Below, one piece after another: positions 29,792 to 53,830 of a DNA stretch of 64,000 nt; the stretch's first letter is position 1, and each line of letters opens with the position of its first letter. The DNA lies in IMG/VR virus record IMGVR_UViG_3300037961_003440, positions 30,365 to 94,364 of that record, one strand, 5' to 3'. The translations under genes and the position numbers were made by a program. Under the pieces are notes generated by a model. The model worked only from the letters and a program-made list of their open reading frames with translations, was not told the origin of the DNA and searched no databases. This DNA is from a virus.

Positions 29792-30608
29792 AATGAATAC
29801 ATTTTTTATAGAAATAAGATGCTTTCCATTCTTGTTCTAAATATGATTCAATTAACTTTTCAAATGAAGCCTTAACTGCGGTTTCAGAACGCTTAGAAAC
29901 TTTTTCAGCATATACATAATTACTTGCTGGATAATACCAAGCCCAATGAGTAAAAGGAATATCAGGGTCTAATCCTAATTTTCTAATTTGTTCGGGGTCA
30001 GCATTTTCAAATAGTATTTTATAAAACGCCATTTCTTTTCTCATAACTGTTTTCTTAGTATCTTTCCAAGCACCTGTTTTTAATTCCATAGGTATATATC
30101 CTCCATCTTCAAAAAATAGTCTATCAATAATACCTTGCAAGTGTACTTCAATACCTGATTCAGTAGTGTACTTTGCATCTAACATTATTTCATTTCCAAT
30201 AGGAATAAATGTATCAAGAGTTTCTTCTTGATGACATTCAATAAACCTTTCAGTATTATAAGCAGACATAGCCGTGTATAAATCTTCATAATCTTCTTTA
30301 TCTGTTTCGGGGTAAAGACTTCTAAAATGCTTTTGTAATTTCATAGGTTCTTCTATAAATTCTAACGCATCATCAATCTTTACAATTTTCCAAAACTCTT
30401 CTTGGGCATTATGTACAATTGTACCTTTAATCATAGCAGGACTTGTTTTTTGTTTTATATCGTCAATATATCCATACTTATAATTAAGGTTACAAAAGCC
30501 ATAACTACCAATAGAAGATTTTGTAATCTTTAATATAGGCGGTTTTCCATCTGTATTTCCTTCCCATTTATATGTGTATTCTCCATTTTCTTTTCTCATT
30601 CTAAACAC
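29730..30608 (-). CDS. Cas4-like/PD-(D/E)xK exonuclease
   Basis: KGTIVH, GIIDRL, MELKTG, N-terminal Cys plus C-terminal CxxCxxxxxC. Confidence 0.85.
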   Translation of the reverse strand: MFRMRKENGEYTYKWEGNTDGKPPILKITKSSIGSYGFCNLNYKYGYIDDIKQKTSPAMIKGTIVHNAQEEFWKIVKIDDALEFIEEPMKLQKHFRSLYPETDKEDYEDLYTAMSAYNTERFIECHQEETLDTFIPIGNEIMLDAKYTTESGIEVHLQGIIDRLFFEDGGYIPMELKTGAWKDTKKTVMRKEMAFYKILFENADPEQIRKLGLDPDIPFTHWAWYYPASNYVYAEKVSKRSETAVKASFEKLIESYLEQEWKASYFYKKCIHCGHYDHCEAADGGSQNDDWF

Positions 30609-33524: not shown

Positions 33525-34577
33525 TTAATATAATCCATGAGGTTTTGCTTCTAATTGTCCTGCTTGTGTAACTCTACAAAATGTTGCTTTAGTTTGAAAA
33601 TCAGTAATAGTATGTGCGCCTACATAACTCATAGAGGATTTAATTCCATCAGATATATCATTAACTATTCTTCTTACCTTTCCTTTATATGGTGTAATTT
33701 TAGAATTACCTTCTACATTTTTAGTTTCTTCCCCTCGTGCTGTTTTAGAATCAATAGAAGCAGAACCTTGATACTTTTTGTATAATTGTTCATTAGGCCA
33801 TTGACCCATTTTAGATATAATTCCCGGAGTTTCTTTTGTTCCTGCAAATAAAGAACCTACCATAACTGCATCAGCACCAAGAGCAATTGCTTTAGGAATA
33901 TCTCCTACTGTTTTACAACCGCCATCAGCAACAATATATGGTATTTCATCTAAGTCTAAAACTTCGTTTATATGATATGCAATATCTAATAATGCTGTTG
34001 CTTGAGGAACACCAACACCTGCTCTAATTCTTGTTTCACACATAGAACCATTACCAATTCCTACTCTTAAAGAATCAGCACCTGCTTCAATTAATCTTTC
34101 AGCCGCACCTTTAGTTACAATATTTCCAGCCATTACATGAATGTCCTCAAATTCTTCTTTAATATAAGCAATCATTTCACCGACTAATTCATGGTCGCCA
34201 TGTGCAACATCAATACAAACACCTTGAATATTAGTATAACCTACTAATGAATCAAATCTATCTTTACCTTTTTGACCTACACCAACTGCCGCAATATATT
34301 GTCCTCTTACTTCTGATTCAATATCATAACATAATGCTACTTGTTCTTTAATAGATTGAAATCTATGTAATACACCAATACCACCAAGTTTTGCTAATTC
34401 AATACACATTTCTGTACCGCATACCGTGTCCATTGGTGAAGCAATTAATGGTACATTTAAATTAAAATTACCAAATTCTACCGATGTATCACAATGACTT
34501 CTTGATTTTATATCCGACATATATGGTATAATACTAATATCATCATAAGTTAAACTATCTCTTTCTTCTATTTTCAA
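33525..34577 (-). CDS. IMP dehydrogenase/GMP reductase family (no CBS domain)
   Basis: [42 protein letters not shown]. Confidence 0.92.
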
Positions 34578-43810: not shown

Positions 43811-44054
43811 ATTCTAAATCATCTTCTTTCTTTTCTATAACCCTATCATTAAAATTAACTGATGCTATCTTAACATGATTAACAGTTAATCTTGTTTTTG
43901 TTTTATCTCCACCTGCTTCTTCATTACAAAATTCAGCAAACTGTTCCAAAATTCTTTCGGCTCTTGTTTGAAATTCTGTAATTGCTACCAAAGGCAATTG
44001 TCTATCGGGTGCTATCTTCTCAAATATTCTTTTTATTTCTCTTACGCTAACCAT
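43773..44054 (-). CDS. Histone-fold protein with acidic tail
   Basis: REIKRIFEKIAPDRQLPLVAITEFQTRAERILEQFAEFCNEEA..KTKTRLTVNHVKIA matches alpha1-L1-alpha2-L2-alpha3 spacing. Confidence 0.7.
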   Translation of the reverse strand: MVSVREIKRIFEKIAPDRQLPLVAITEFQTRAERILEQFAEFCNEEAGGDKTKTRLTVNHVKIASVNFNDRVIEKKEDDLEFGEWNTGDDEDE

Positions 44055-44464
44055 TTATTTACACTCTCCTTGTTGTAAAAATATTTTGGATTTTCAACTT
44101 CTTTAAGGTTCAAGGCAATCCAAACCGAACCACTTAGAGAATCAACTCTAATTACTTCATAGTTTTCTGTAACAATATATGTTTCTACATTTGGCGTTTT
44201 ACCATACAATCTTTGTATTTCTTGTGATACCGATTGAATATTATCAACAATATATTTTATTATTAACGGCATTTGTATTTCCACATATGGTTCAGAATCT
44301 AATTCATATATCCCTGTTTGATTACAAACATTACAATTTTGTCCATTACATATAGGGCATTTAATTTCTAAATTAGATAATACAGGAAACCTTACTCTTC
44401 GGACTCGTCTAATTCCATTAGATTCGTCTTGCTTAGAAATTGCTTTTCTTTGCTTTTCCACCAT
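44042..44464 (-). CDS. Zn-finger protein (CxxCxG..CxxC)
   Basis: CPICNGQNCNVCNQTG. Confidence 0.55.
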   Translation of the reverse strand: MVEKQRKAISKQDESNGIRRVRRVRFPVLSNLEIKCPICNGQNCNVCNQTGIYELDSEPYVEIQMPLIIKYIVDNIQSVSQEIQRLYGKTPNVETYIVTENYEVIRVDSLSGSVWIALNLKEVENPKYFYNKESVNKWLA

Positions 44465-44817
44465 TTCATTCTCTCCTTATCACCAATTACAATTGCTGAA
44501 TTAAGAATAGGTAATTGAGTATTAATAGTATTCCAATCTGTATCACTAAAATAAGCCGCCCCAAATGGGTGAGTATGAATCCAGCATTTAAGCGGTATTC
44601 TCATACCAACAACTGATTCATCTTCGTAATCAACAAAACTTCTTGTACCTTTACTAATAAACAAATTATCATTACTGTCTACTATAACTGATACTTCTTT
44701 TTCATTTAGTATTTCTGTTGATAATTCCCATATAGCATTTAAGAAAACCTCACTTTCATAATTACTTTCTTCTTCATCAAACATTTCTTTTAATTTATCT
44801 TTTGCTTCTGTCCACAT
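44392..44817 (-). CDS. JAB/MPN+ metalloprotease (deubiquitinase-like)
   Basis: E(KEV)...WIHTHP...FSDTD = E-HxH-x7-S-x2-D JAMM motif. Confidence 0.88.
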   Translation of the reverse strand: MWTEAKDKLKEMFDEEESNYESEVFLNAIWELSTEILNEKEVSVIVDSNDNLFISKGTRSFVDYEDESVVGMRIPLKCWIHTHPFGAAYFSDTDWNTINTQLPILNSAIVIGDKERMKWWKSKEKQFLSKTNLMELDESEE

Positions 44818-45023
44818 TATTCATCACCTTCATATTCAAATCCTAATTGTTCTTGTCTTTCTTTTCCACAATCAAAAGGGTTAGAGTGGATTTGACCACT
44901 AATCCTTGAATTGATTATTTTTATATTTGGTTCACCTTCTTTAATTAGTTTCCCACATAATCTACATTTTGCATTTCCTGTTCCTACACTTAATATCCAT
45001 TCTGTCATTATACACACATCCAT
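44817..45023 (-). CDS. Zn-finger microprotein
   Basis: AKCRLCGKLIKEGE...H....C. Confidence 0.5.
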   Translation of the reverse strand: MDVCIMTEWILSVGTGNAKCRLCGKLIKEGEPNIKIINSRISGQIHSNPFDCGKERQEQLGFEYEGDE

Positions 45024-45541
45024 TTTGGTTTATCTCTTTTCTTATATTCACTTCTCCAACCTTTCCATTGTTTATCACCCATGTAAAAATTACGATAAGC
45101 CAACAAACTATTTCCTTCTACTTTATATTCATCAGGCATACATTGAGGCGGTTCTTGAAATCCATTATCTTTTAATCTTGATGGTGGTTTTCTCAATAAC
45201 TCTCTCAATTTACTATCCGATTCATGTACTTTACCGTAGCGATAAGTATATTCATCACATAATGCTTCAAATACATCATACATAAAATTGTAATGTTGTA
45301 CAGATTCTCTAACCCAAATTGTTGTAGGGTGATTCAAATGAGCAATCTTATACAGTTTTTGCATATCTTTTGGTAATCCTACAAATACATATTTACCATC
45401 TACTTCATGATAATATTGGTCTACAACCCTATGAGTCGTAGATAGCATTTGTGCATATTCTAAAATCATCTTAATACAATGTGCATTATTATGACTCTTT
45501 GCAATTTCTTTAGCGGTTTCTTCTATGTAAAAGAAATTCAT
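45008..45541 (-). CDS. Pyrimidine-dimer DNA glycosylase/T4 endonuclease V-like family
   Basis: MNFFY..H..KMILEYAQMLST..HLNHPTTIWVRES..LCDEYTYRYGKVH..PPQCMP. Confidence 0.75.
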   Translation of the reverse strand: MNFFYIEETAKEIAKSHNNAHCIKMILEYAQMLSTTHRVVDQYYHEVDGKYVFVGLPKDMQKLYKIAHLNHPTTIWVRESVQHYNFMYDVFEALCDEYTYRYGKVHESDSKLRELLRKPPSRLKDNGFQEPPQCMPDEYKVEGNSLLAYRNFYMGDKQWKGWRSEYKKRDKPKWMCV

Positions 45542-45718
45542 TCATCTTCCTCCATTATGTCAGGGTACAAAACTCTCCCAATACAATACAATATAATCAT
45601 TCCCATAATTCCTATAAATAATGTTCTCATTAATCATCACCTTCATCGCAACAATCATCATTTAATGTAGAAACTCCTACACCTATCCCAAATAACCAAA
45701 ATAATAATCCCACATTAA

Positions 45719-46276
45719 TCACCCATTTATCCTAAAATGCTTTTCAACATAATCTCCATTAAACCATCTTTGAATCCATTGAGCACCATAACCTGCAATT
45801 ACAACTTGCATAAAATTAACTCCTTCAGGTTCTCCTTCCCAAGAATCACCTTGACAACTAAAACTACCATCTGGGCCACTTGTAAATACATTATATAATT
45901 CAGGTTTTTCTAAATGTGAAATCATAGCGGCATTTCTCGCTTGCGCTCTAAGGTCTAACCATTTAACTTTAGAATTATACATTGTTCTTCTAATATCTAA
46001 ATTGTCGGCACAACAAACAACTAAATCATATCCTTTTAATTGTCCTGCTGTTAATACAGGATAAGGTTGTGCATTAACATTATACCTTTTAGACATAGCA
46101 TTAACTTTCTTTTCATCTAAATCTTCTTTGGTAAAGTTTTGATATGTTAGATTCTTTTCCTCTACAATATCAGGGTCATAAACTGTTATATCATATATCC
46201 CTACTTTATCCAATAGTGGTATTAGAAAACTTCCAATTCCACCTGCGCCTATCAACATTACTTTTCTCTTACTCAT
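45719..46276 (-). CDS. E1-like ThiF/MoeB adenylating enzyme
   Basis: GAGGIGS, DPDIVEEKNLTYQ, KV, CADNLDIRR; C-terminal SCQ Cys. Confidence 0.9.
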   Translation of the reverse strand: MSKRKVMLIGAGGIGSFLIPLLDKVGIYDITVYDPDIVEEKNLTYQNFTKEDLDEKKVNAMSKRYNVNAQPYPVLTAGQLKGYDLVVCCADNLDIRRTMYNSKVKWLDLRAQARNAAMISHLEKPELYNVFTSGPDGSFSCQGDSWEGEPEGVNFMQVVIAGYGAQWIQRWFNGDYVEKHFRING

Positions 46277-46898
46277 TTTTTCTCACTTTCCTTAAGTTCC
46301 TTTTTAATCTCGGCAAACTAACTCCGAATTTTTTACACACTTCTTTTTGAGTATATGGTGTGTGTTCATATACATATGCGGCAATAATACCTCTTGTTAG
46401 AGTCTGCGATTTATTCCAAAATTTACACGCATCGCTAACTTCTTTAGAATTGATTTCCATATTAAATAAAAACTCGTCAATATCATTTATACCAAACACT
46501 CCAGAATTAGAATAATGTCTTGCAATCTTTTTTGCTAATCTTGATGCTCTTGATATTTTACAACCTAAGAATTTACAATACTTTCGCAAATTTGTCGGTT
46601 TATTTAAATCTCTCATTGTGTAATATAATATAGCGACAGCCCTTTCAGCACTATCATAACTATAATATAAATTAGTATAAGATATATACTTGTCATTTTT
46701 TAATACTTCTTCCTTATCTTCTATGTCATATTCATTTAATAACATTGTTAAATCATTTATCATTACCTTATTATTAGGTAATATATCATTAACCTCATAT
46801 ATTCTATAAGCCTGAATACATCCACAAACTGAACAAACAGGGAGATTAATTTCTTTGTTTAAGTTCAGGTGCTTCGCTTGACAATTTACACACGGCAT
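46269..46898 (-). CDS. Transcription factor B (TFB/TFIIB)-like protein
   Basis: N-terminal Zn ribbon CVNC..VCSVCG; two cyclin-like repeats (AVAILYYTMR; IIAAYVY..TQKEVCKKFGVS). Confidence 0.8.
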   Translation of the reverse strand: MPCVNCQAKHLNLNKEINLPVCSVCGCIQAYRIYEVNDILPNNKVMINDLTMLLNEYDIEDKEEVLKNDKYISYTNLYYSYDSAERAVAILYYTMRDLNKPTNLRKYCKFLGCKISRASRLAKKIARHYSNSGVFGINDIDEFLFNMEINSKEVSDACKFWNKSQTLTRGIIAAYVYEHTPYTQKEVCKKFGVSLPRLKRNLRKVRKNE

Positions 46899-48093
46899 CC
46901 CAATCTAACCTAATATCAGTTTGTTCTTTTTCATGCCCATTAATATATCTACTAACTGTTGAAACTAATTTTACTAACATAGTATCATTCATACAAGCAA
47001 ATGCTCTTGCTGCAAATTGGTCACCAACAGATGCACCACTTGATAAATTATCAATACAAATTGGCCCTGCCCAATAAGGTTGTTTATCGGTATTATTTAT
47101 TACATTAGGTATTTCAAGATTAACATTTTGTGTAGTTTGTGTAGTTAGTACATATGTGCTAACATCTTGAATACCTCTTTTAGATTGATTATCAACAATC
47201 ATCCAATCAGCAAATTTACCTCTAACAAACATAGCCAAAACTTCTTGACCATTTCTTGTAAAAGTGCCTTTAGTAACATTATCGTATTTATTAACCATAT
47301 CATTAAACAATTCCATAGCCCTTTGTTCAGCCAAATCACTTCTTCTATTTTGCTTCAAAAATTCTTTCATAATTTTAATCTGTGCAGGAGTGGCTTTTTC
47401 ACCAACAGTTCTAAACCATAATTCAGCAGGTGAAACCATATACCACTTACCCGTTCTTTTATTATAAAGATAGGAATTGATAAATGTATTCAAATCTCTT
47501 GTACTAATTTCACCCCATACACCACTACTAATTTCAAGTGCATAGTTATCTTCAGCGATTCTCATCAAAGACAAACGAGTATTTCTTTCTTTGACACCTT
47601 CTGTTGTTCTTTCAAAGAATTTATACGGCACTCTATTTTCCATAGCATAAGATACATTTTCAGGAACATAAATACATCTAAAGAAATAATCATCTAACGC
47701 TTCTTGTGCTTCTTCTCCTTCGCCATTAATATAAGCAGAACGCATTATTGTTCTACTAATTGCTTTCATAATAGTATCAAGGTTAGCAAATTCACCGTTA
47801 GCCATATATCTATTGCCGACTTTACGCATATTAATTAGATATTTGCAATTACCAATTCTCATCATTATACTTTTCTTTGGGTCAGACCTAACAATAGAAA
47901 CGATACCTATTGTGCTTTTTAATGCACTATGTATGCTTTCAATTGTTGGCTCTTTAGAAATATTATTTCTTTGTCTTTGTGCCCAAATATCAATATTTCT
48001 ATTTCTTGGTATTTGTCTTGAAACTAATTTAGTTTCTATTATTGCCGTTCTATCATCGCTTGCGTGTCTTATTCTAAAAATTATTTCTCCCAT
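46846..48093 (-). CDS. Hypothetical protein with candidate E2-like active-site motif
   Basis: IPNV...GPICIDNL resembles UBC HPN...GxICLDIL; two genes upstream of E1. Confidence 0.35.
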   Translation of the reverse strand: MGEIIFRIRHASDDRTAIIETKLVSRQIPRNRNIDIWAQRQRNNISKEPTIESIHSALKSTIGIVSIVRSDPKKSIMMRIGNCKYLINMRKVGNRYMANGEFANLDTIMKAISRTIMRSAYINGEGEEAQEALDDYFFRCIYVPENVSYAMENRVPYKFFERTTEGVKERNTRLSLMRIAEDNYALEISSGVWGEISTRDLNTFINSYLYNKRTGKWYMVSPAELWFRTVGEKATPAQIKIMKEFLKQNRRSDLAEQRAMELFNDMVNKYDNVTKGTFTRNGQEVLAMFVRGKFADWMIVDNQSKRGIQDVSTYVLTTQTTQNVNLEIPNVINNTDKQPYWAGPICIDNLSSGASVGDQFAARAFACMNDTMLVKLVSTVSRYINGHEKEQTDIRLDWDAVCKLSSEAPELKQRN

Positions 48094-48094
48094 T

Positions 48095-49291
48095 TTAATT
48101 ACCTCTTAATTCTGTTATCATTTCACTTGCTTCAGTTTTTGTTAGACCATCTCTAACTGTTCCACCTAATCTCTCAATATATTTTATTTGTTTTAGTGTA
48201 GCGGGTTGATTGGGATTAGGTGCAATAATGTTAAGTAAAGCATTTAATTGTTTAACGGATAGTGGTTTTCTGTTGATTATTCTATTTGACATATCGTTTA
48301 GAAATGTTTTCTCCCAAGCATTTTTACCTTCTTCAACTGAAAATACAGGTATATCATAATATTCACAGGCTTCTTGTAAAGCATTATTATCATATTCTGT
48401 TTTTGTTTCAGCACGAATTCTTTTTGCTTCTTCAATCATTCGCTGTCTACTTTCTTCTGCTAATCTATCTTGTTCTGATTGTTGTTCACGAATATATGCT
48501 ATTCTTTGTTCAACCTCTTCTCTCTTTTCATCTAATTGTTTTTCAAACTTTTGTGTTTTAGCAAACAATAACTGAACATCTCTCCATAGTTTTTCATTAG
48601 GATAACCTCTTGTTTTAATTTGCGCTTTAGGATTATCTGGGTGATTCCATCTCCAAACAACAGAAGCCATTTTACCTAAAGAACCCGATTTAGTTTTAGC
48701 AATTACATAGTGAGGTTCATATCTCTTAGTTTTATAATCATAATATTTACCCTTTGAACGAACATTAATTCTAATATCTAAATTCTTAACTTCATTAAAT
48801 AATTCATTCCAATCATCACCGTGTTCTTTCCACCACCATTCGGCTTTCATAGTTTTAACGGATTCTTTCATCCATTCAATAATTTTTTCTTCGGTAATTG
48901 CATCTTCAGGTATTCCTTTATTTTCTTTTAGATGTCTAATAATCATCCAATTAGTAATATGTTCACTACCAAGAATTTCTAATATTCCATTTTCAGTATT
49001 TTCTACTTCAAAATGCCAAGCAATAGGATGTCCACATACACAATAATTAGGGTGATTATCACAATGAGGTTCAGGTAATTCAAGATGTTCTGTATGAGCA
49101 TATCTTAAAGGTCTATACCAAACATTACCTGTTGCTCTCCATTCATGTTTTACTTCTTCCCAATCATCAGATACACTAATTTCAGTTAGTCTATTAATTA
49201 ATGCTTGATTTAATGCACCGCTTTTTAATTCAATATTATGGTTTTCTTCACCTTCAATATTATATTCTATAAAATCTTCCACATTAATCAC
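48095..49291 (-). CDS. Zn-binding protein with coiled coil and shared C-terminal helical module
   Basis: CVCGHPI...GSEHI; tail ATLKQIKYIERLGG..LTKTEASEMITELR. Confidence 0.55.
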   Translation of the reverse strand: MINVEDFIEYNIEGEENHNIELKSGALNQALINRLTEISVSDDWEEVKHEWRATGNVWYRPLRYAHTEHLELPEPHCDNHPNYCVCGHPIAWHFEVENTENGILEILGSEHITNWMIIRHLKENKGIPEDAITEEKIIEWMKESVKTMKAEWWWKEHGDDWNELFNEVKNLDIRINVRSKGKYYDYKTKRYEPHYVIAKTKSGSLGKMASVVWRWNHPDNPKAQIKTRGYPNEKLWRDVQLLFAKTQKFEKQLDEKREEVEQRIAYIREQQSEQDRLAEESRQRMIEEAKRIRAETKTEYDNNALQEACEYYDIPVFSVEEGKNAWEKTFLNDMSNRIINRKPLSVKQLNALLNIIAPNPNQPATLKQIKYIERLGGTVRDGLTKTEASEMITELRGN

Positions 49292-49539
49292 TCCATACCT
49301 GCATTAAACAATTGCTGCTCTAAATATCCATCACACATTTGATTTAGTTTTTCTGCTAAACTTTGTGTAATTCCCGGAATAGTACTTCTGTTTAAACTAA
49401 GCCATATAGTATGTGCCCTATTCAATACAATAATACATCCATTATCATGTTCATTCTTTTTAATTACCACAGGTGGTAATTCTTCGCTTTCTATCAATCT
49501 AAATTCTACTGCTTTCTTTTTATTCATCATTTTTATCAC
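49288..49539 (-). CDS. Hypothetical protein
   Basis: ATGA-coupled ORF. Confidence 0.55.
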   Translation of the reverse strand: MIKMMNKKKAVEFRLIESEELPPVVIKKNEHDNGCIIVLNRAHTIWLSLNRSTIPGITQSLAEKLNQMCDGYLEQQLFNAGME

Positions 49540-49751
49540 TCCATATTCATTAAATGTGTTAAGGGGTCTGTTTTCATCAATTGTTTGCTGAGTAAAATAT
49601 GAGGAAACTTAGATAATAACATTGGTATTACCTTGTTCCAATCAATTTCACTTTCATACTGCTTTGTCCAAACGCTACCGTTTGATTTCAAAGAAGTTAT
49701 CCTTATCACTTTATGCTTTTCTTCATTTTCATAATCCTTGCTTTCGCTCAT
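49536..49751 (-). CDS. Hypothetical protein
   Basis: ATGA-coupled ORF. Confidence 0.5.
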   Translation of the reverse strand: MSESKDYENEEKHKVIRITSLKSNGSVWTKQYESEIDWNKVIPMLLSKFPHILLSKQLMKTDPLTHLMNME

Positions 49752-49862
49752 TCTATCACATCATTTTTTTCTTATTTTTTTTTAAATTCTTGTTTTACCG
49801 GAAGTTTTCGGAAGGAATCCGAAAATTTTAGTATTTTAAGAATTTATATGACACAAAATGTA

Positions 49863-51758
49863 TCATATTTCACAAAGGCCACCTGCACACGCAATCTCGC
49901 CTTGTAAATCTGTATTATCTTCTGTTTCAATTACTTTGGTTAAGTCTATTTGCTTAAGTCCTGCTATCATTTGGTCGTATTGTAAGCGTGTAATTGATTC
50001 AAAAGGTGCTTGGACATAACTACCACCATCATAAGGCAATACAGACAAACCATTGTAGTATTTTCTATTATTCCACATCCAATTTCCTACTTCTTCCCAT
50101 TCCCATTTTCTAATTGAAATTGTAGCAGAAACATTGTGAGTATTCATACCTTTTGTATGACCTTTATTGACCCAATTTGTTGCTACATATTTTACTCTTT
50201 CAAGTAATTGAATTGCATCTTCACTTCTTGTTGTAGAACCTTCCGGTGCTTTTTGAGGTAAAGAAATTACAGCAGTATCATGTGGTCTAAATTGTTCATC
50301 TTCAATTATAGAAGGATGATTATTAACTAAATAATTATAAATTGCTTCATTCTTTCCTACTCTAATTCTTCTAATATAATATTCGTCATGCCAAGCATGA
50401 ATACCACTTGAAGTTCCTAAAACACAAGATGTAGTTCCAGCAGGTTTAACACAAGTAATTCTTGCCGCAGGATTTATACCAATTTGTTCTGCAATTAATT
50501 TATTAACAGACTTTGATAATTCTGCCGCTTGTTGTAAATCTAATCCTTTTAATTTATTAGAAGCAATACCTGTCATACTAACTCCAAGTAAAGCATCTTT
50601 TTCTGTTGTAGTTTTCCATATTTCTCTAAGATAATGAAAATCAGTATAACCTGCTTGTAATGTTGCTAATACAGTTGCCGCAGAAACTCTTGCATTTAAA
50701 TCATCTTGGTCAATAACATCACTTACATTTATTTCTGTTAAATTACAAAACTGATTTGGTCTCAGGGCTATTTCGCAACAAGGATTTGTTCCCCAATCTT
50801 TATCATTTGAAAAATATATTCCGGGTTCTCCTGAACCTGATTCTTTAATTCTCTTCCATAATTTCATGAAGTAATCTTTATCAATTCTGCTTCTAATAAG
50901 AACGGCTGAATTATTAGCCCTACCTCTTTGTGGATTTAACTCCCACCAATTACCGGATTTAGCAGTTATCATATCCATATCATCTGCACTAAATAAAGAA
51001 ATTAAAGCGGCTCGTCTAATACCACCTGCTAAAACAGCATCAGCAATATGACACATAATATCATGTGCTTGGATAGGAGTAATTTTTTCACCCGAAGTTA
51101 TATCTTTTAGTATTCCTTCTACTTTAACTAAACATTCTTTTAACGGTTGAGGGCCGGGTGCTTTTCCACCTGATGTAATTAATCTTTCACCTTTTGCTCT
51201 AATATCTGAATAATCAAAATCAGGTGTTGATGAAAGTCTACCAAAATATGATTTAACTAAAACCTTAATTGCATCAGCCCAACCTTCAATAGAATCTCCA
51301 ATAAGATACCTTCTTTTTCTATTAGGGTTAGGGTGTTGAATTACAGGTAATTTGTCAATATGATTATATTGTACTGAATAACCAACGCCTGTTCCACCAA
51401 GAAGTAAAAACATTGATTCCCAAAAAGCAGCAATATTATCAACAGGCATATAAGCACAGTTATAAATTCTATTAGGTGCTACTTCTATTGGCTTACCACC
51501 AAATTGTAGACTTCTCATTGAAGGTAAAACTTTCTTAGGTTGTACAAAGTTAGTATAAACATCCATTATTTGTTCTTCTAATTTAGGGTATTTTTTAATA
51601 TGCATCATCATATTTCTTGTGCATAATTCTTCCCATGTTTCCCTTCTTTCTTTTTGTTCTACATATTTTGCATATTTCATATGTACAGTTATATCGCTTA
51701 AAATTTCACTTGCTTTATTCATTATTCCACTTCCTTTCTTATTGGTAAATTTTCCCAT
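49863..51758 (-). CDS. nrdJ: Class II (B12-dependent) ribonucleotide reductase, monomeric RTPR type
   Basis: YNCAY, GGTGVGYS, AGGIRRAA, TNPCCEI, FCNLTE, VKPAGT, C-terminal CAGGLC; likely start at 51722. Confidence 0.93.
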   Translation of the reverse strand: MGKFTNKKGSGIMNKASEILSDITVHMKYAKYVEQKERRETWEELCTRNMMMHIKKYPKLEEQIMDVYTNFVQPKKVLPSMRSLQFGGKPIEVAPNRIYNCAYMPVDNIAAFWESMFLLLGGTGVGYSVQYNHIDKLPVIQHPNPNRKRRYLIGDSIEGWADAIKVLVKSYFGRLSSTPDFDYSDIRAKGERLITSGGKAPGPQPLKECLVKVEGILKDITSGEKITPIQAHDIMCHIADAVLAGGIRRAALISLFSADDMDMITAKSGNWWELNPQRGRANNSAVLIRSRIDKDYFMKLWKRIKESGSGEPGIYFSNDKDWGTNPCCEIALRPNQFCNLTEINVSDVIDQDDLNARVSAATVLATLQAGYTDFHYLREIWKTTTEKDALLGVSMTGIASNKLKGLDLQQAAELSKSVNKLIAEQIGINPAARITCVKPAGTTSCVLGTSSGIHAWHDEYYIRRIRVGKNEAIYNYLVNNHPSIIEDEQFRPHDTAVISLPQKAPEGSTTRSEDAIQLLERVKYVATNWVNKGHTKGMNTHNVSATISIRKWEWEEVGNWMWNNRKYYNGLSVLPYDGGSYVQAPFESITRLQYDQMIAGLKQIDLTKVIETEDNTDLQGEIACAGGLCEI

Positions 51759-52189
51759 TTGTTAAACTGCGCCAACAGTTTGTTTTCTTTTTTAGTAACT
51801 ACTATCCAATCCATATCTTGAACCCAAGTCCAATTTTTCATGTCTGCAATTACTTTATCTCCGTATATTCTAACTAATTGGCCTATTTCCCAAAATTCTT
51901 TATTATCATATTTTATAATGGGATGTCCACACGCTTGAATTATACTTTTTCGGCTTTCTGCAATTATCTGACCATCACTATAAAAGTTAGGATTAGAACA
52001 GGTAATTTTTAAGTCATTAAATTTTCTATGAAAATTTGCTAATGTTAATGACTCTTTTATCTTCCAACCTGATGCTTTTAAATCACTTTCAAAAATGCGA
52101 CTTGGTAGGAAGTTTTCATCTTCTTCGTCTATATTATATTCGTTGTAAAAATTTTTTATATTCATATTATCACCATATATATTACCCAT
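51722..52189 (-). CDS. Hypothetical protein
   Basis: Operon ORF. Confidence 0.55.
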   Translation of the reverse strand: MGNIYGDNMNIKNFYNEYNIDEEDENFLPSRIFESDLKASGWKIKESLTLANFHRKFNDLKITCSNPNFYSDGQIIAESRKSIIQACGHPIIKYDNKEFWEIGQLVRIYGDKVIADMKNWTWVQDMDWIVVTKKENKLLAQFNKWENLPIRKEVE

Positions 52190-52260
52190 TATGCTAATTT
52201 CCTTGATTTATCCAAAAAAATTTGTTTTGATGGGCCGTTCCACTTCATTTTTTCAAAAAA

Positions 52261-52557
52261 TTACTCTATTTCTTTAGATATTAAATCGTGATATTTTACT
52301 GATTTGTTATTTTGTGTTTCAAAACAGTCATCACACATACAAAAAACAATTCTCTTGTCTGAAAATTCTCTATAATGAAAGTCATGCCTACTAAGATATG
52401 TAGCATAAGCCATTAATTCTACGCCACCTATCAAAGATTTTGTCTTTTTGTCTGTTGATAATTTTTTATCGCAAGTTAAGCAGGTTCTTTTGCTATCACT
52501 TGGTTGCATTTCCTTCTTTATCCACTTTTCTTTATTTGGTATCATTGTTGTACTCAT
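52261..52557 (-). CDS. Zn-finger protein
   Basis: CLTC...CDDC. Confidence 0.5.
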   Translation of the reverse strand: MSTTMIPNKEKWIKKEMQPSDSKRTCLTCDKKLSTDKKTKSLIGGVELMAYATYLSRHDFHYREFSDKRIVFCMCDDCFETQNNKSVKYHDLISKEIE

Positions 52558-52853
52558 AATTCTTCACCATCTTTTCTAAAAACTTTTCTTACTGAGGACT
52601 TAACCTCGTGATAAACCCCTTTTGATTTAGGGCTTCCTGATACAGTAATTAATTTTACAGTATCGGTAGCAGGATTTTTTACCCGTATCTTAATATGTTT
52701 GCTAATTTGAAACTCTACGATTTCTACACCTAAAGTTTCTATTGCTTTCATCATCTTCTTAATCTCTTTTCCGTTCATAACCATCACATCATTGTATCGT
52801 TTTACTATAACATATGTTATATTTCTTAATATACGCCAAAAGAGTTGCTTCAT
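52554..52853 (-). CDS. HicA-like (dsRBD-fold) protein
   Basis: KEIKKMMKAIETLG...SKHIKIR...ITVSGSP; true start probably near 52778. Confidence 0.55.
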   Translation of the reverse strand: MKQLFWRILRNITYVIVKRYNDVMVMNGKEIKKMMKAIETLGVEIVEFQISKHIKIRVKNPATDTVKLITVSGSPKSKGVYHEVKSSVRKVFRKDGEEL

Positions 52854-53100
52854 GTTCCATATTTCTATCGCTATAATCTAATGAAAAATATTTTTCAACA
52901 AATTCTTCCAGAAATCCACCAAGTATTTCTTTGGGCAATATCATTTCCATTTCTTCAAACTGATTTAAAAATGTAGGTAATATTCCTTCTTCTTCTCTCA
53001 TTTTATGTACTTCTCTAAGCCAAGTTTCATGAGCACGAATTTCTTTCCATGTAGGTTTTAACATTTTTAGAAATATCCAAAAGTCTTTTAAAATATTCAT
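52789..53100 (-). CDS. Hypothetical protein
   Basis: Operon ORF. Confidence 0.45.
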   Translation of the reverse strand: MNILKDFWIFLKMLKPTWKEIRAHETWLREVHKMREEEGILPTFLNQFEEMEMILPKEILGGFLEEFVEKYFSLDYSDRNMEHEATLLAYIKKYNICYSKTIQ

Positions 53101-53480
53101 TCAAAAGCCGCCTCTTTCTTAAAATAATAAATCATATCTTTGGCATTTCTAAATCTTTCTTGAGCAGATTTACCATCTTTCCAAGATATATTATAAGAAG
53201 CATAACGATTTAATTTGTTAATTAGGGTTGATTCATACATTGACTGTTGTGCAACCATATCATCTTTAGCATATTGTTCAGCATATTCTTTTGATTCTCT
53301 TTTCATATCTTTTAATTGAGTATTCCAACCCTTTTGTAAAATAGGGTATCTAATAAAACTCATAGGTGAGGGATAATTACTATAACTGTAATAATCTTTC
53401 TTTTTCTCAACCAAGTAGTCTATAATTTCAATAAATTCTTCTGCGCCTGTATCTTTTCTCCAATAACTCATCACTATCAA
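53097..53480 (-). CDS. Hypothetical protein
   Basis: Operon ORF. Confidence 0.55.
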   Translation of the reverse strand: MIVMSYWRKDTGAEEFIEIIDYLVEKKKDYYSYSNYPSPMSFIRYPILQKGWNTQLKDMKRESKEYAEQYAKDDMVAQQSMYESTLINKLNRYASYNISWKDGKSAQERFRNAKDMIYYFKKEAAFE

Positions 53481-53608
53481 TAAAAAAATCCCCCCATTAT
53501 TTTAAGTGGCGGGGGGAAACCACTATCCTATGAAAAATAGTTTTATCAGTAAAACTACTAAAAACTGTATGCCATTAGTCGCATACTAACTAACAGAATT
53601 GACCTGTA

Positions 53609-53830
53609 TTAATCGTCATCACTAATACAAGAACCGCCAACAATTGCTTGAGTTAGTACGACTTCATCAACCGCATTAAAATCAATGTTAGCAATATCTT
53701 CTCTTGAAACCAATTCACCATCAACATATGCCCAATGTGTAGGGTGGTCAATTATTTGGTCAAGTGCTTCAGTTGCACTTAGAGTTAATTCTGTATGTCC
53801 TGTTTCATTCAATATTGTTATCTTTACCAT
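53609..53830 (-). CDS. Ubiquitin-like (SAMP/ThiS beta-grasp) protein precursor
   Basis: MVKITIL...WAYVDGELV...DEVVLTQAIVGG followed by a 7-aa extension SCISDDD. Confidence 0.8.
   Translation of the reverse strand: MVKITILNETGHTELTLSATEALDQIIDHPTHWAYVDGELVSREDIANIDFNAVDEVVLTQAIVGGSCISDDD

Follow-up and report, generated by a model that had tools for sequence, protein, structure and literature searches.

A magrovirus genome was found to carry, as a conserved and clustered set, the genes of a ubiquitin-like protein (Ubl) precursor, a minimal E1, a JAB protease and an E2-like protein. Since these four components occur together in a virus, the virus probably tags proteins itself, and a virus-owned Ubl conjugation system that includes an E2-like step is the reading preferred here, with a little more than even confidence. 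The window, i.e. the whole stretch of DNA that was analysed, comprises 64,000 nucleotides (positions 30,365 to 94,364) of the 94-kb IMG/VR record IMGVR_UViG_3300037961_003440 and contains the following features.

53609..53830, minus strand: Ubl precursor, 73 aa (open reading frame)
53633-53830, minus strand: mature Ubl, residues 1-66, ending in AIVGG (predicted cut after Gly66)
53612-53632, minus strand: predicted removable Ubl tail SCISDDD, following the GG
46846..48093, minus strand: candidate E2, virus-only, 415 aa (fold-level support and co-occurrence)
46879-47337, minus strand: UBC/UEV-like C-terminal domain of the candidate E2, approximately residues 253-405 (model-based)
47056-47058, minus strand: invariant Cys346 in GPICIDN (family alignment)
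46269..46898, minus strand: TFB/TFIIB homologue between the E2-like and E1 genes, overlapping both; a neighbour with no component role assigned
45719..46276, minus strand: minimal E1, ThiF-type adenylation domain, 185 aa (PF00899)
45854-45856, minus strand: invariant Cys141 of the E1 (family alignment)
44392..44817, minus strand: JAMM/JAB metalloprotease, 141 aa (invariant catalytic motif)
44042..44464, minus strand: 140-aa protein with the four-Cys knuckle CPICNGQNCNVC, following the JAB gene; a conserved neighbour only

All four proteins of the set are small and open to direct in vitro testing.

Genome context and linkage of the gene set

Terminase, portal, MCP, PolB, RFC and TFB genes mark the carrier as a tailed archaeal virus. 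Judged by gene content it is a magrovirus (group B-like), as it fits the published description of a tailed-virus genome of ~95 kb with an archaeal-type replisome, RNR and two ATP-dependent ligases, one of them within the structural block (PMC5434244). In the present record the structural genes include those for terminase, portal and MCP, and the second ligase gene separates the portal gene from that of the prohead protease. Pfam scans of the open reading frames placed the gene set, on the minus strand, within a replication block of PolB, RFC, ERCC4, PD-(D/E)XK, ligase and RNR genes. The original prediction had reported the Ubl, E1 and JAB genes on one strand, which was confirmed together with the coordinates of all three; its description of the surroundings as a host-takeover region was not, this label being an interpretation of what is a replication block.

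Linkage was analysed in the related IMG/VR contigs that continue for at least 9 kb downstream of the Ubl gene (71 contigs). In all 71 both the E2-like and the E1 gene were present, in 70 also the JAB gene, so that the co-occurrence across magrovirus relatives expected under the original prediction was observed. Wherever all four genes were found they kept one order and strand (72/72 loci). The set spans 9.4 kb in the window, where RNR and other genes intervene, and 4.0 kb in the shortest locus; two loci (L031 and L063) contain compact cassettes of Ubl, an ORF of ~100 aa, E2-like, TFB, E1 and JAB. The E2-like gene always has the Ubl gene on one side and the E1 gene on the other, whereas other neighbours shift. 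Because all 80 loci compared are relatives from within one virus group, co-occurrence partly reflects their shared core genome.

The neighbouring TFB gene keeps its position in distant relatives. Its 274-aa orthologue in L031 matched TFIIB core domains in the PDB (E ~1e-7) and the window TFB protein (E 3e-15). The gene of the 140-aa four-Cys protein was detected by tblastn downstream of JAB in 56/80 loci with its CPxC...CxxC motif conserved, and this protein matched no family in the family-model searches.

Modifier, protease and activating enzyme

The predicted beta-grasp Ubl with a capped di-glycine was corroborated at the level of the open reading frame, of an AF2 model, which is a beta-grasp, and of the relatives, most of which also have a tail after the GG. 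A search gave 134 homologues, and among the matches listed AIVGG was kept wherever the C-terminus was reached; in 116 of the 116 database homologues reaching the motif, AIVGG was invariant and a tail of 1-24 residues, variable in sequence, came after it. An invariant motif with a tail variable in length and sequence is what a cleaved precursor is expected to show. NETGHTEL and HPTHW were likewise invariant in an alignment of 40 sequences.

The JAB is predicted to trim this tail and probably removes conjugates as well. Its motif E41...H81-x-H83-x7-S91-x2-D94 is intact, as had been claimed, and invariant in relatives (37-66 sequences). The window protein matched Prok-JAB with 21.7 bits (E 1.9e-4), under the 25-bit cut-off; 28 of 37 family members matched this model, and a family profile searched against the PDB retrieved JAMM proteases only (AMSH-LP, 5e-4; STAMBP; Sst2; Rpn11). 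The E1 and JAB genes adjoin or overlap in many loci, and one protein of the same E1 family (P0385) is a natural E1-JAB fusion. The earlier explanation that the virus carries a JAB on account of the capped GG is valid in part. In 6/80 related loci, however, the Ubl is encoded to stop exactly at the GG and the JAB is still retained in all six, which implies a JAB role beyond maturation. Retention where the Ubl needs no maturation would also suit a counter-defence or decoy function, in which the JAB would clear viral proteins of host Ubl/SAMP marks and the viral Ubl and E1 would compete with or saturate a host Ubl defence. Borgs carry many JAMM 'deSAMPylases' that were proposed to counter host tagging (PMC12660748), and bacterial Ubl systems attack phage particles according to Hor 2024 as related in PMC12660748. 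Such a function is nevertheless very improbable, as it leaves unexplained why the virus retains, as a fixed set, its own highly conserved Ubl with invariant motifs that face the enzymes, an E1 whose Cys is invariant and the E2-like protein; Poseidoniales are without any known host Ubl defence.

The ThiF/E1 assignment of the original prediction was upheld. The protein matched Pfam ThiF PF00899 with 59 bits (E 5e-16; cut-off 28.1 bits) and was recovered again when the whole genome was searched in six frames. The nucleotide-binding site is invariant, the full set of invariant residues being G10-x-G12-G13-x-G15, D34, D36, K41 N42, D91 N92, R96 and F139-S-C141-Q. Profile matches in the PDB were a ThiF-type protein (9egc), UBA5, MccB, Cap2, Uba4, UBA3, MoeB and ThiF, and by HMM scores the enzyme is equally near to ThiF/MoeB and to conjugating E1s. 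Zn-binding CxxC pairs, a UFD or E2-docking domain and a rhodanese domain were not present in the 185 residues, and to our knowledge this enzyme is smaller than any characterised E1.

Sulfur carriage or conjugation

The same components could instead form a sulfur-carrier pathway, in which the JAB trims the Ubl, the E1 adenylates it, a host sulfurtransferase makes the thiocarboxylate and either a host enzyme or the 415-aa protein accepts the sulfur. The sulfur could, for example, serve to thiolate tRNA or nucleotides or go into a thio-cofactor, in parallel to ThiS/ThiF, CysO/Mec+ and QbsE/QbsC/QbsD. A capped GG paired with a JAB occurs in the sulfur-carrier systems QbsE/QbsD and CysO/Mec+; QbsE has a CF tail, which the frequent CY, NC and C tails of the viral Ubl relatives recall. 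JAB-trimmed precursors with residues after the GG are also documented for sulfur carriers by Iyer 2006 (PMC1779556). The cap therefore cannot separate conjugation from sulfur carriage. The original prediction of a viral ubiquitylation or sampylation pathway is partly supported: the Ubl-E1-JAB module is genuine, conserved and clustered, and its use in conjugation, its targets and its purpose (host takeover or counter-defence) are predictions. Moreover, the Ubl is short and ThiS/MoaD-like in length and C-terminus, some sources label its relatives 'sulfur carrier protein ThiS', and its model matched MoaD, ThiS, CysO and TtuB with the same Z as ubiquitin. The best NCBIfam matches of the E1 are ThiF models.

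Against sulfur carriage, neither the E1 nor any other part of the 94-kb record contains a rhodanese, and a PP-loop ATPase (thiolase), MoaE and PAPS reductase are likewise missing from the whole record. Pfam scans of its ORFs of at least 150 aa revealed no sulfur-transfer partner, ThiG and cysteine desulfurase included, which extends to the complete record the absence previously claimed for the window; host enzymes could supply these activities. The sulfur acceptors TtuA/NcsA and CysM are not encoded in the record either. The Ubl did not match the Pfam ThiS/MoaD model PF02597 even in a one-genome search, and its strictly linked 415-aa partner models as UBC/UEV-like, unlike known sulfur acceptors. 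Sulfur carriage is accordingly rated as unlikely, though with a real chance of being right.

The partner on which conjugation by an E2-like step depends is a candidate E2 of a new, virus-only family. The earlier nomination of the 415-aa GPICIDNL protein as candidate E2 has gained fold-level support and strict co-occurrence. In the model, its C-terminal domain consists of a helix, four strands, the Cys loop and helices, and its structural matches over ~100-120 residues are almost all UBC, UEV or RWD domains. GPICIDN follows strands 273-319 and 338-345 and precedes helix 356-368. GPIC346IDN[LM] is invariant in the family and resembles the UBC motif G-x-I-C-L-D-I-L, so that Cys346 has the E2 context G-x-[IV]-C-[LI]-D-x-[LM] between strand 4 and helix 2. 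The N-terminal ~250 aa are conserved and gave no confident fold match. An HPN motif ~10 residues before the Cys is absent from the family, the segment before W-x-GPICIDN varying in length and sequence. Pfam returned no match for the 415-aa protein, UQ_con PF00179 had none with E up to 10 when the six frames of this one genome were searched, a PDB sequence search gave no match, and among 1.84 billion representatives nothing beyond its own family was found; hardly any of 185,579 species genomes contains this family.

Conjugation might also proceed without an E2, as in archaeal SAMPylation (E1 UbaA, SAMP and JAMM), the 415-aa protein then being a substrate, an adaptor or a syntenic but unrelated replication or transcription factor. 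Its top structural matches are indeed non-catalytic UEV domains, and archaeal SAMP systems function without an E2 (PMC2948915, PMC4895103). Catalysis rather than binding is, however, favoured by the G-x-I-C-I-D context of Cys346 and its invariance in sequences with as little as 26% identity; the gene is fixed between those of the Ubl and the E1 while other neighbours move, and the E1 scored 31.9 bits against the UbaA equivalog NCBIfam NF047750, far below its 450-bit cut-off. E2-independent conjugation is hence judged quite unlikely.

Proposed cascade and relation to known systems

For the preferred conjugation system with an E2-like step, six steps are proposed, of which the first three are taken from family chemistry and the last three from fold, motif and context only. 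The 73-aa Ubl would be synthesised as a precursor, and the JAB would cleave after Gly66 to expose AIVGG. The 185-aa ThiF-type E1 would then adenylate Gly66 with ATP and probably form a Ubl thioester on Cys141. The Ubl may next be handed to Cys346 in the UBC-like domain of the 415-aa protein, whose conserved N-terminal 250 residues would select the substrate, which would make a separate E3 unnecessary. Finally, the JAB may also undo the modification. Since the genes share the orientation of the replication/early block in which they lie, and a viral TFB is flanked by them, the likelier targets are factors of replication or transcription, whether host or viral, and not virion parts. The most far-reaching joint reading, a complete minimal viral cascade whose E1 is the smallest known and whose E2 belongs to a new family with a fused, built-in E3, co-transcribed with TFB and tagging host transcription or replication factors (e.g. 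host TFB or TBP) so that the archaeal proteasome removes them, is distinctly improbable as a whole.

Clusters of Ubl, E2-like, JAB and E1-like genes were described by Iyer, Burroughs & Aravind 2006 (PMC1779556), and BilABCD consists of the Ubl BilA, the E2 BilB, the JAB BilC and the E1 BilD, its JAB pre-processing the Ubl one residue before the C-terminus (10.1101/2023.09.26.559546). The viral set resembles both in its clustered genes, beta-grasp GG modifier, ThiF-type E1 with an intact nucleotide site and a conserved Cys, and JAMM motif. With BilABCD it shares the four-part list (the viral E2 being a candidate), extra C-terminal residues on the Ubl (removed by the cognate JAB in Bil), a stand-alone ThiF-type E1 and the lack of an encoded E3. 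In contrast to BilABCD, it is carried by an archaeal virus in a replication block and not in a bacterial defence island, its E2-like domain belongs to a new virus-only family and is fused to ~250 further residues, its E1 has just 185 aa, and its genes are interleaved with TFB and, in the window genome, RNR. Bil/PADLOC models did not match the viral Ubl, E2-like protein or JAB, except for one marginal JAB match.

The best PADLOC matches of the viral E1 were 'E1-E2' models (E 9e-12) of the Cap2 type, i.e. the E2-E1 fusion of type II CBASS, where Cap3 is the JAB. The viral E1 matched Cap2 chains in the PDB over the Rossmann half only, and a JAB partner is present; unlike in type II CBASS, the virus has a free Ubl instead of a cGAS-like enzyme with a conjugated C-terminus, and the E2-like protein and the E1 are encoded by separate genes. 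Archaeal SAMP/UbaA/HvJAMM1, a system with known dual use in conjugation and sulfur transfer, likewise combines an archaeal setting, a small beta-grasp modifier with GG, a ThiF-type E1 and a JAMM protease, whereas SAMPylation operates without an E2, UbaA has ~270 aa and most relatives encode the viral Ubl with a cap. As in QbsE/QbsC/QbsD and CysO/MoeZ/Mec+, a few residues after the GG are removed by a JAMM enzyme (predicted for the virus) and the activator is of ThiF type; the E1s of those systems, unlike the viral one, carry or recruit a rhodanese and adjoin sulfur-accepting enzymes. Among archaeal elements, an E1-like gene was reported for the Helarchaeota virus 'Nidhogg' (10.1101/2021.07.29.454249) and JAMM deSAMPylases for Borgs (PMC12660748). 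These are single ubiquitin-system components, read as manipulating host tagging by using or countering the host system, whereas the magroviruses keep Ubl, E1, JAB and E2-like protein together as a single conserved set of their own.

No description of the magrovirus Ubl/E1/E2-like/JAB set was found in the searchable literature. Magroviruses rank with the most abundant surface-ocean viruses (PMC5434244). If the set conjugates proteins, a major marine virus-host system would have protein tagging among its core viral functions, and archaeal viruses would possess a ubiquitin-like pathway of their own instead of only hijacking one. A new and highly divergent E2 family would be added to the UBC-like fold, next to a minimal E1 of 185 aa, and both would inform the origin of E1-E2 cascades from sulfur-carrier systems. 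Should the improbable proteasome-targeting reading be true, it would represent a ubiquitin-proteasome-style host takeover driven by a virus in archaea.

Genomic setting

The virus record IMGVR_UViG_3300037961_003440 is linear with a length of 94,364 bp, and the window corresponds to its final 64 kb. Its structural block is of the tailed-virus type, with genes for a terminase, a portal, a prohead protease, an HK97-type capsid protein and a tail tube. The minus strand holds a replication block of archaeal type, which encodes PolB, an RFC-like clamp loader, ERCC4 and PD-(D/E)XK nucleases, an ATP-dependent ligase, a class II RNR and an enzyme of the GMP-reductase family. The gene of the latter adjoins that of PolB and is a nucleotide-metabolism gene within this block. 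The Ubl, E1 and JAB genes of the original prediction were recovered at the positions listed below, all of them on the minus strand and inside the replication block.

Features of the virus record (window positions unless another frame is named)
33525-34520, minus strand: GMP reductase / IMPDH-family enzyme (PF00478, E 6e-86)
44392-44817, minus strand: JAB
45008-45541, minus strand: 177-aa protein between E1 and JAB (PHROG 624, 'DNA binding protein', E 1.6e-46; no Pfam family)
45719-46276, minus strand: E1
46269-46898, minus strand: TFIIB/TFB homologue; orthologues in related viral loci at L031:11914-12738 and L063:8193-9014 (L031 orthologue against the PDB TFIIB core, E ~1e-7)
46846-48093, minus strand: 415-aa protein, candidate E2
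53609-53830, minus strand: Ubl
L082:6698-9199 (genome 25698-28199, outside the window): second ATP-dependent DNA ligase domain, in an 833-aa protein
L081:2942-3742 (genome coordinates, outside the window): PAP2-superfamily phosphatase near the left genome end (E 1.3e-14)

The gene of the second ligase is flanked by those of the portal and the prohead protease; a second ligase in the structural module is a trait of magrovirus groups A and B, and the gene combination of the record, with the RNR, agrees with what Philosof et al. (PMC5434244) give for groups A and B jointly and for group B. A megablast search of the region against the INPHARED phages gave no match. CheckV puts the completeness of the record, which is flagged as linear, at 61%, yet the lengths of its relatives cluster at 92-97 kb, and the structural and replication blocks are both present; the CheckV estimate may be too low for this virus group.

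Ubl, JAB, E1 and candidate E2 proteins

The 73-aa Ubl matched no Pfam, PHROG or NCBIfam model, and the ThiS model missed it even when the search was restricted to one genome. In metagenomes 134 close homologues were found, many of them on contigs of 88-110 kb, and an alignment of 40 sequences revealed the invariant motifs NETGHTEL, HPTHW and AIVGG. The proposed beta-grasp Ubl with a capped di-glycine was borne out: among the 120 homologues listed, two end short of the motif and two more were unreadable by the parse, and in all 116 others AIVGG is followed by a tail of 1-24 residues. The tails lack a conserved sequence (CY, NL, C, NC, Y or acidic runs) and have a median length of two residues among 80 IMG/VR loci. 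In six of these 80 loci (L037, L054, L055, L068, L075 and L080) the Ubl ends exactly at AIVGG, with JAB, E1 and E2-like genes retained. The fold alone does not decide between a modifier and a sulfur carrier. The tryptic remnant expected on a target comprises 23 residues (EDIANIDFNAVDEVVLTQAIVGG), and K-GG antibodies are therefore unsuitable for its detection.

For the JAB protein the Pfam Prok-JAB match falls below the cut-off; 28 of 37 family members are matched by this model. A perfect JAMM motif is formed by E41, H81, H83, S91 and D94, which are invariant among relatives, and the PDB matches of the family profile are exclusively JAMM proteases. The JAB ORF shares 73 nt (44392-44464) with the following ORF, taken in its longest form, which encodes a 140-aa Zn-knuckle protein; the true start of the latter gene is probably later or non-ATG. 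Two Zn-knuckle proteins (44042-44464 and 44817-45023) were considered as RING-type E3s and dropped, as they have four cysteines only and no RING pattern.

The 185-aa E1 matches ThiF above the Pfam cut-off. Its profile matched a ThiF-type protein (9egc), UBA5, MccB, Cap2, Uba4, UBA3, MoeB, ThiF and Uba1 at similar scores, in each case confined to the Rossmann half, and its top PADLOC matches were the CBASS 'E1-E2' models; a literature search for the PDB codes 9egb/9egc gave no paper. Among 35 aligned relatives (52-89% identity) the GxGGxG loop, D34, D36, K41-N42, D91-N92, R96, WLDLR and F-S-C141-Q are invariant. CxxC zinc pairs, a rhodanese domain and a UFD are absent from the protein, and ThiF, MoeB and UbaA are all longer. 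Judged by its sequence, the viral enzyme appears to be a stripped-down E1 with one invariant cysteine.

The 415-aa protein matched no family model and has many homologues, in which G343-P-I-C346-I-D-N, G357-D-Q-F, R363 and N369-D370 are invariant, as are E152-N153, Q248-N249-R250 and D296-W297 in the N-terminal two thirds. In the AF2 model (pLDDT 83.5) residues 253-405 begin with a helix and four strands; a variable loop leads to a further strand, which ends at Cys346, and helices follow. The C-terminal domain is somewhat more likely than not an E2-like catalytic domain. Foldseek of the whole model against the PDB returned no match at E <= 0.001, with E2s among the weak rows only, and the domain profile gave a chance match only against PDB sequences (Miro GTPase, E 0.36). 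The ESM Atlas search with the domain yielded no usable match, BFVD contained three viral homologues without names and nothing informative, and tblastn of the 415-aa protein against the INPHARED phages found no match. Against 1.84 billion representatives the profile recovered solely its own family (161 clusters), whose full-length members share the architecture of the 415-aa protein. When 185,579 species genomes were scanned, three matches were obtained, each from a short MAG contig that had been binned to an unrelated bacterium. From these searches the family appears essentially confined to viruses.

Linkage and order of the genes

IMG/VR was scanned with the Ubl alignment; from the 198 relatives that this gave, 80 loci were retained. 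The co-occurrence check suggested by the original prediction came out positive: where the Ubl gene has at least 9 kb of downstream sequence (71 loci), the E2-like and E1 genes are always present (71/71 each) and JAB is present in 70. All 72 loci with the four genes have them on one strand in the order Ubl, E2-like, E1, JAB, within a span of 4.0-10.2 kb. Where a member is missing, the sequence ends before the usual place of the gene; locus L007 has the full 10 kb downstream, yet barely extends to that place. Divergent relatives (E2-like domain ~30% identical) carry a compact cassette of Ubl, a ~100-aa ORF, E2-like protein, TFB, one or two small ORFs, E1 and JAB.

The E1 and JAB genes are adjacent or overlapping in many loci, and the positions of the PHROG-624 protein, a 398-aa protein and the RNR vary between related loci. 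Because of this varying position the 177-aa PHROG 624 protein probably does not belong to the Ubl set. The TFB homologue always lies between the E2-like and E1 genes and overlaps both in the window. One TBP is a SAMPylation target in Haloferax (PMC4895103); a functional tie between TFB and the Ubl set is speculation.

These E1 and JAB families are naturally fused in P0385, a protein of 453 aa from JGI metagenomes whose cluster has 192 members: residues 62-248 align with the E1 family, the S-C-Q cysteine motif included (hhalign probability 99.7%), and residues 327-409 with the JAB family (98.9%). All loci come from a single virus group, which makes co-occurrence by itself weak evidence; the gene order, which stays fixed while neighbours rearrange, and the E1-JAB fusion weigh more.

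Protein conjugation, sulfur transfer and known systems

The view that the set serves protein conjugation was upheld in part. It is supported by the linked UBC-like protein with its invariant cysteine and, as far as sequences tell, by the invariant cysteine of E1, as well as by the retention of JAB in the six loci where the Ubl already stops at GG; JAB-trimmed precursors, however, are also known among sulfur carriers. A role as sulfur carrier would further agree with the resemblance of Ubl and E1 to ThiS/ThiF in size and score; the pathway could be completed by host enzymes, and archaeal SAMPs serve both conjugation and sulfur transfer. Against it, no sulfur-transfer gene was detectable: none of the searches for rhodanese, PP-loop ATPase, MoaE and PAPS reductase gave a match while the ThiF control was recovered, which extends the absence of a partner from the window to the whole 94-kb record, and Pfam scans of ORFs of at least 150 aa gave replication and structural genes only. 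A sulfur-carrier role is considered unlikely, and conjugation of some kind likely.

As a candidate E2 the 415-aa protein is favored by its putative UBC-like domain, Cys346 and fixed linkage, but the HPN motif is absent and UQ_con gave no match, even in a one-genome search. Conjugation via this protein has a somewhat better than even chance, and conjugation without it seems distinctly improbable.

The closest known systems are bacterial Ubl / E2 / JAB / E1 operons of the Bil type (Iyer 2006, PMC1779556), in which JAB pre-processing of the Ubl takes place one residue ahead of its C-terminus (10.1101/2023.09.26.559546). On paper the magrovirus set works alike. It is not a member, however: it is viral and archaeal, the models of the Bil-type families match only one of its four proteins, and its E2-like domain forms a family of its own and carries 250 additional residues in fusion. 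E1-like genes of a Helarchaeota virus (10.1101/2021.07.29.454249) and JAMM deSAMPylases of Borgs (PMC12660748) are partial precedents, neither being a full viral set. A literature search, with magrovirus papers examined in the main text, found none linking magroviruses with ubiquitin, ThiF or JAB.

In Bacteroides phage crAss001 (gp77-gp76), bajarodcaudo virus 1 and Flavobacterium phage FpV4 (gp51-gp50), a ThiF-domain gene directly follows that of a ~415-aa protein, whose JAMM motif gave a weak JAB profile match (E 0.002-0.02, small local search). In these cultured Bacteroidota phages the two genes sit close to UDG and RNR within the replication block, and profiles detected no Ubl or E2-like homologue; it may represent a related but different E1-JAB module in growable phages.

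Ubl conjugation cassettes as such are known; in this putative one the carrier, the E2-like family and the minimal E1 are new.
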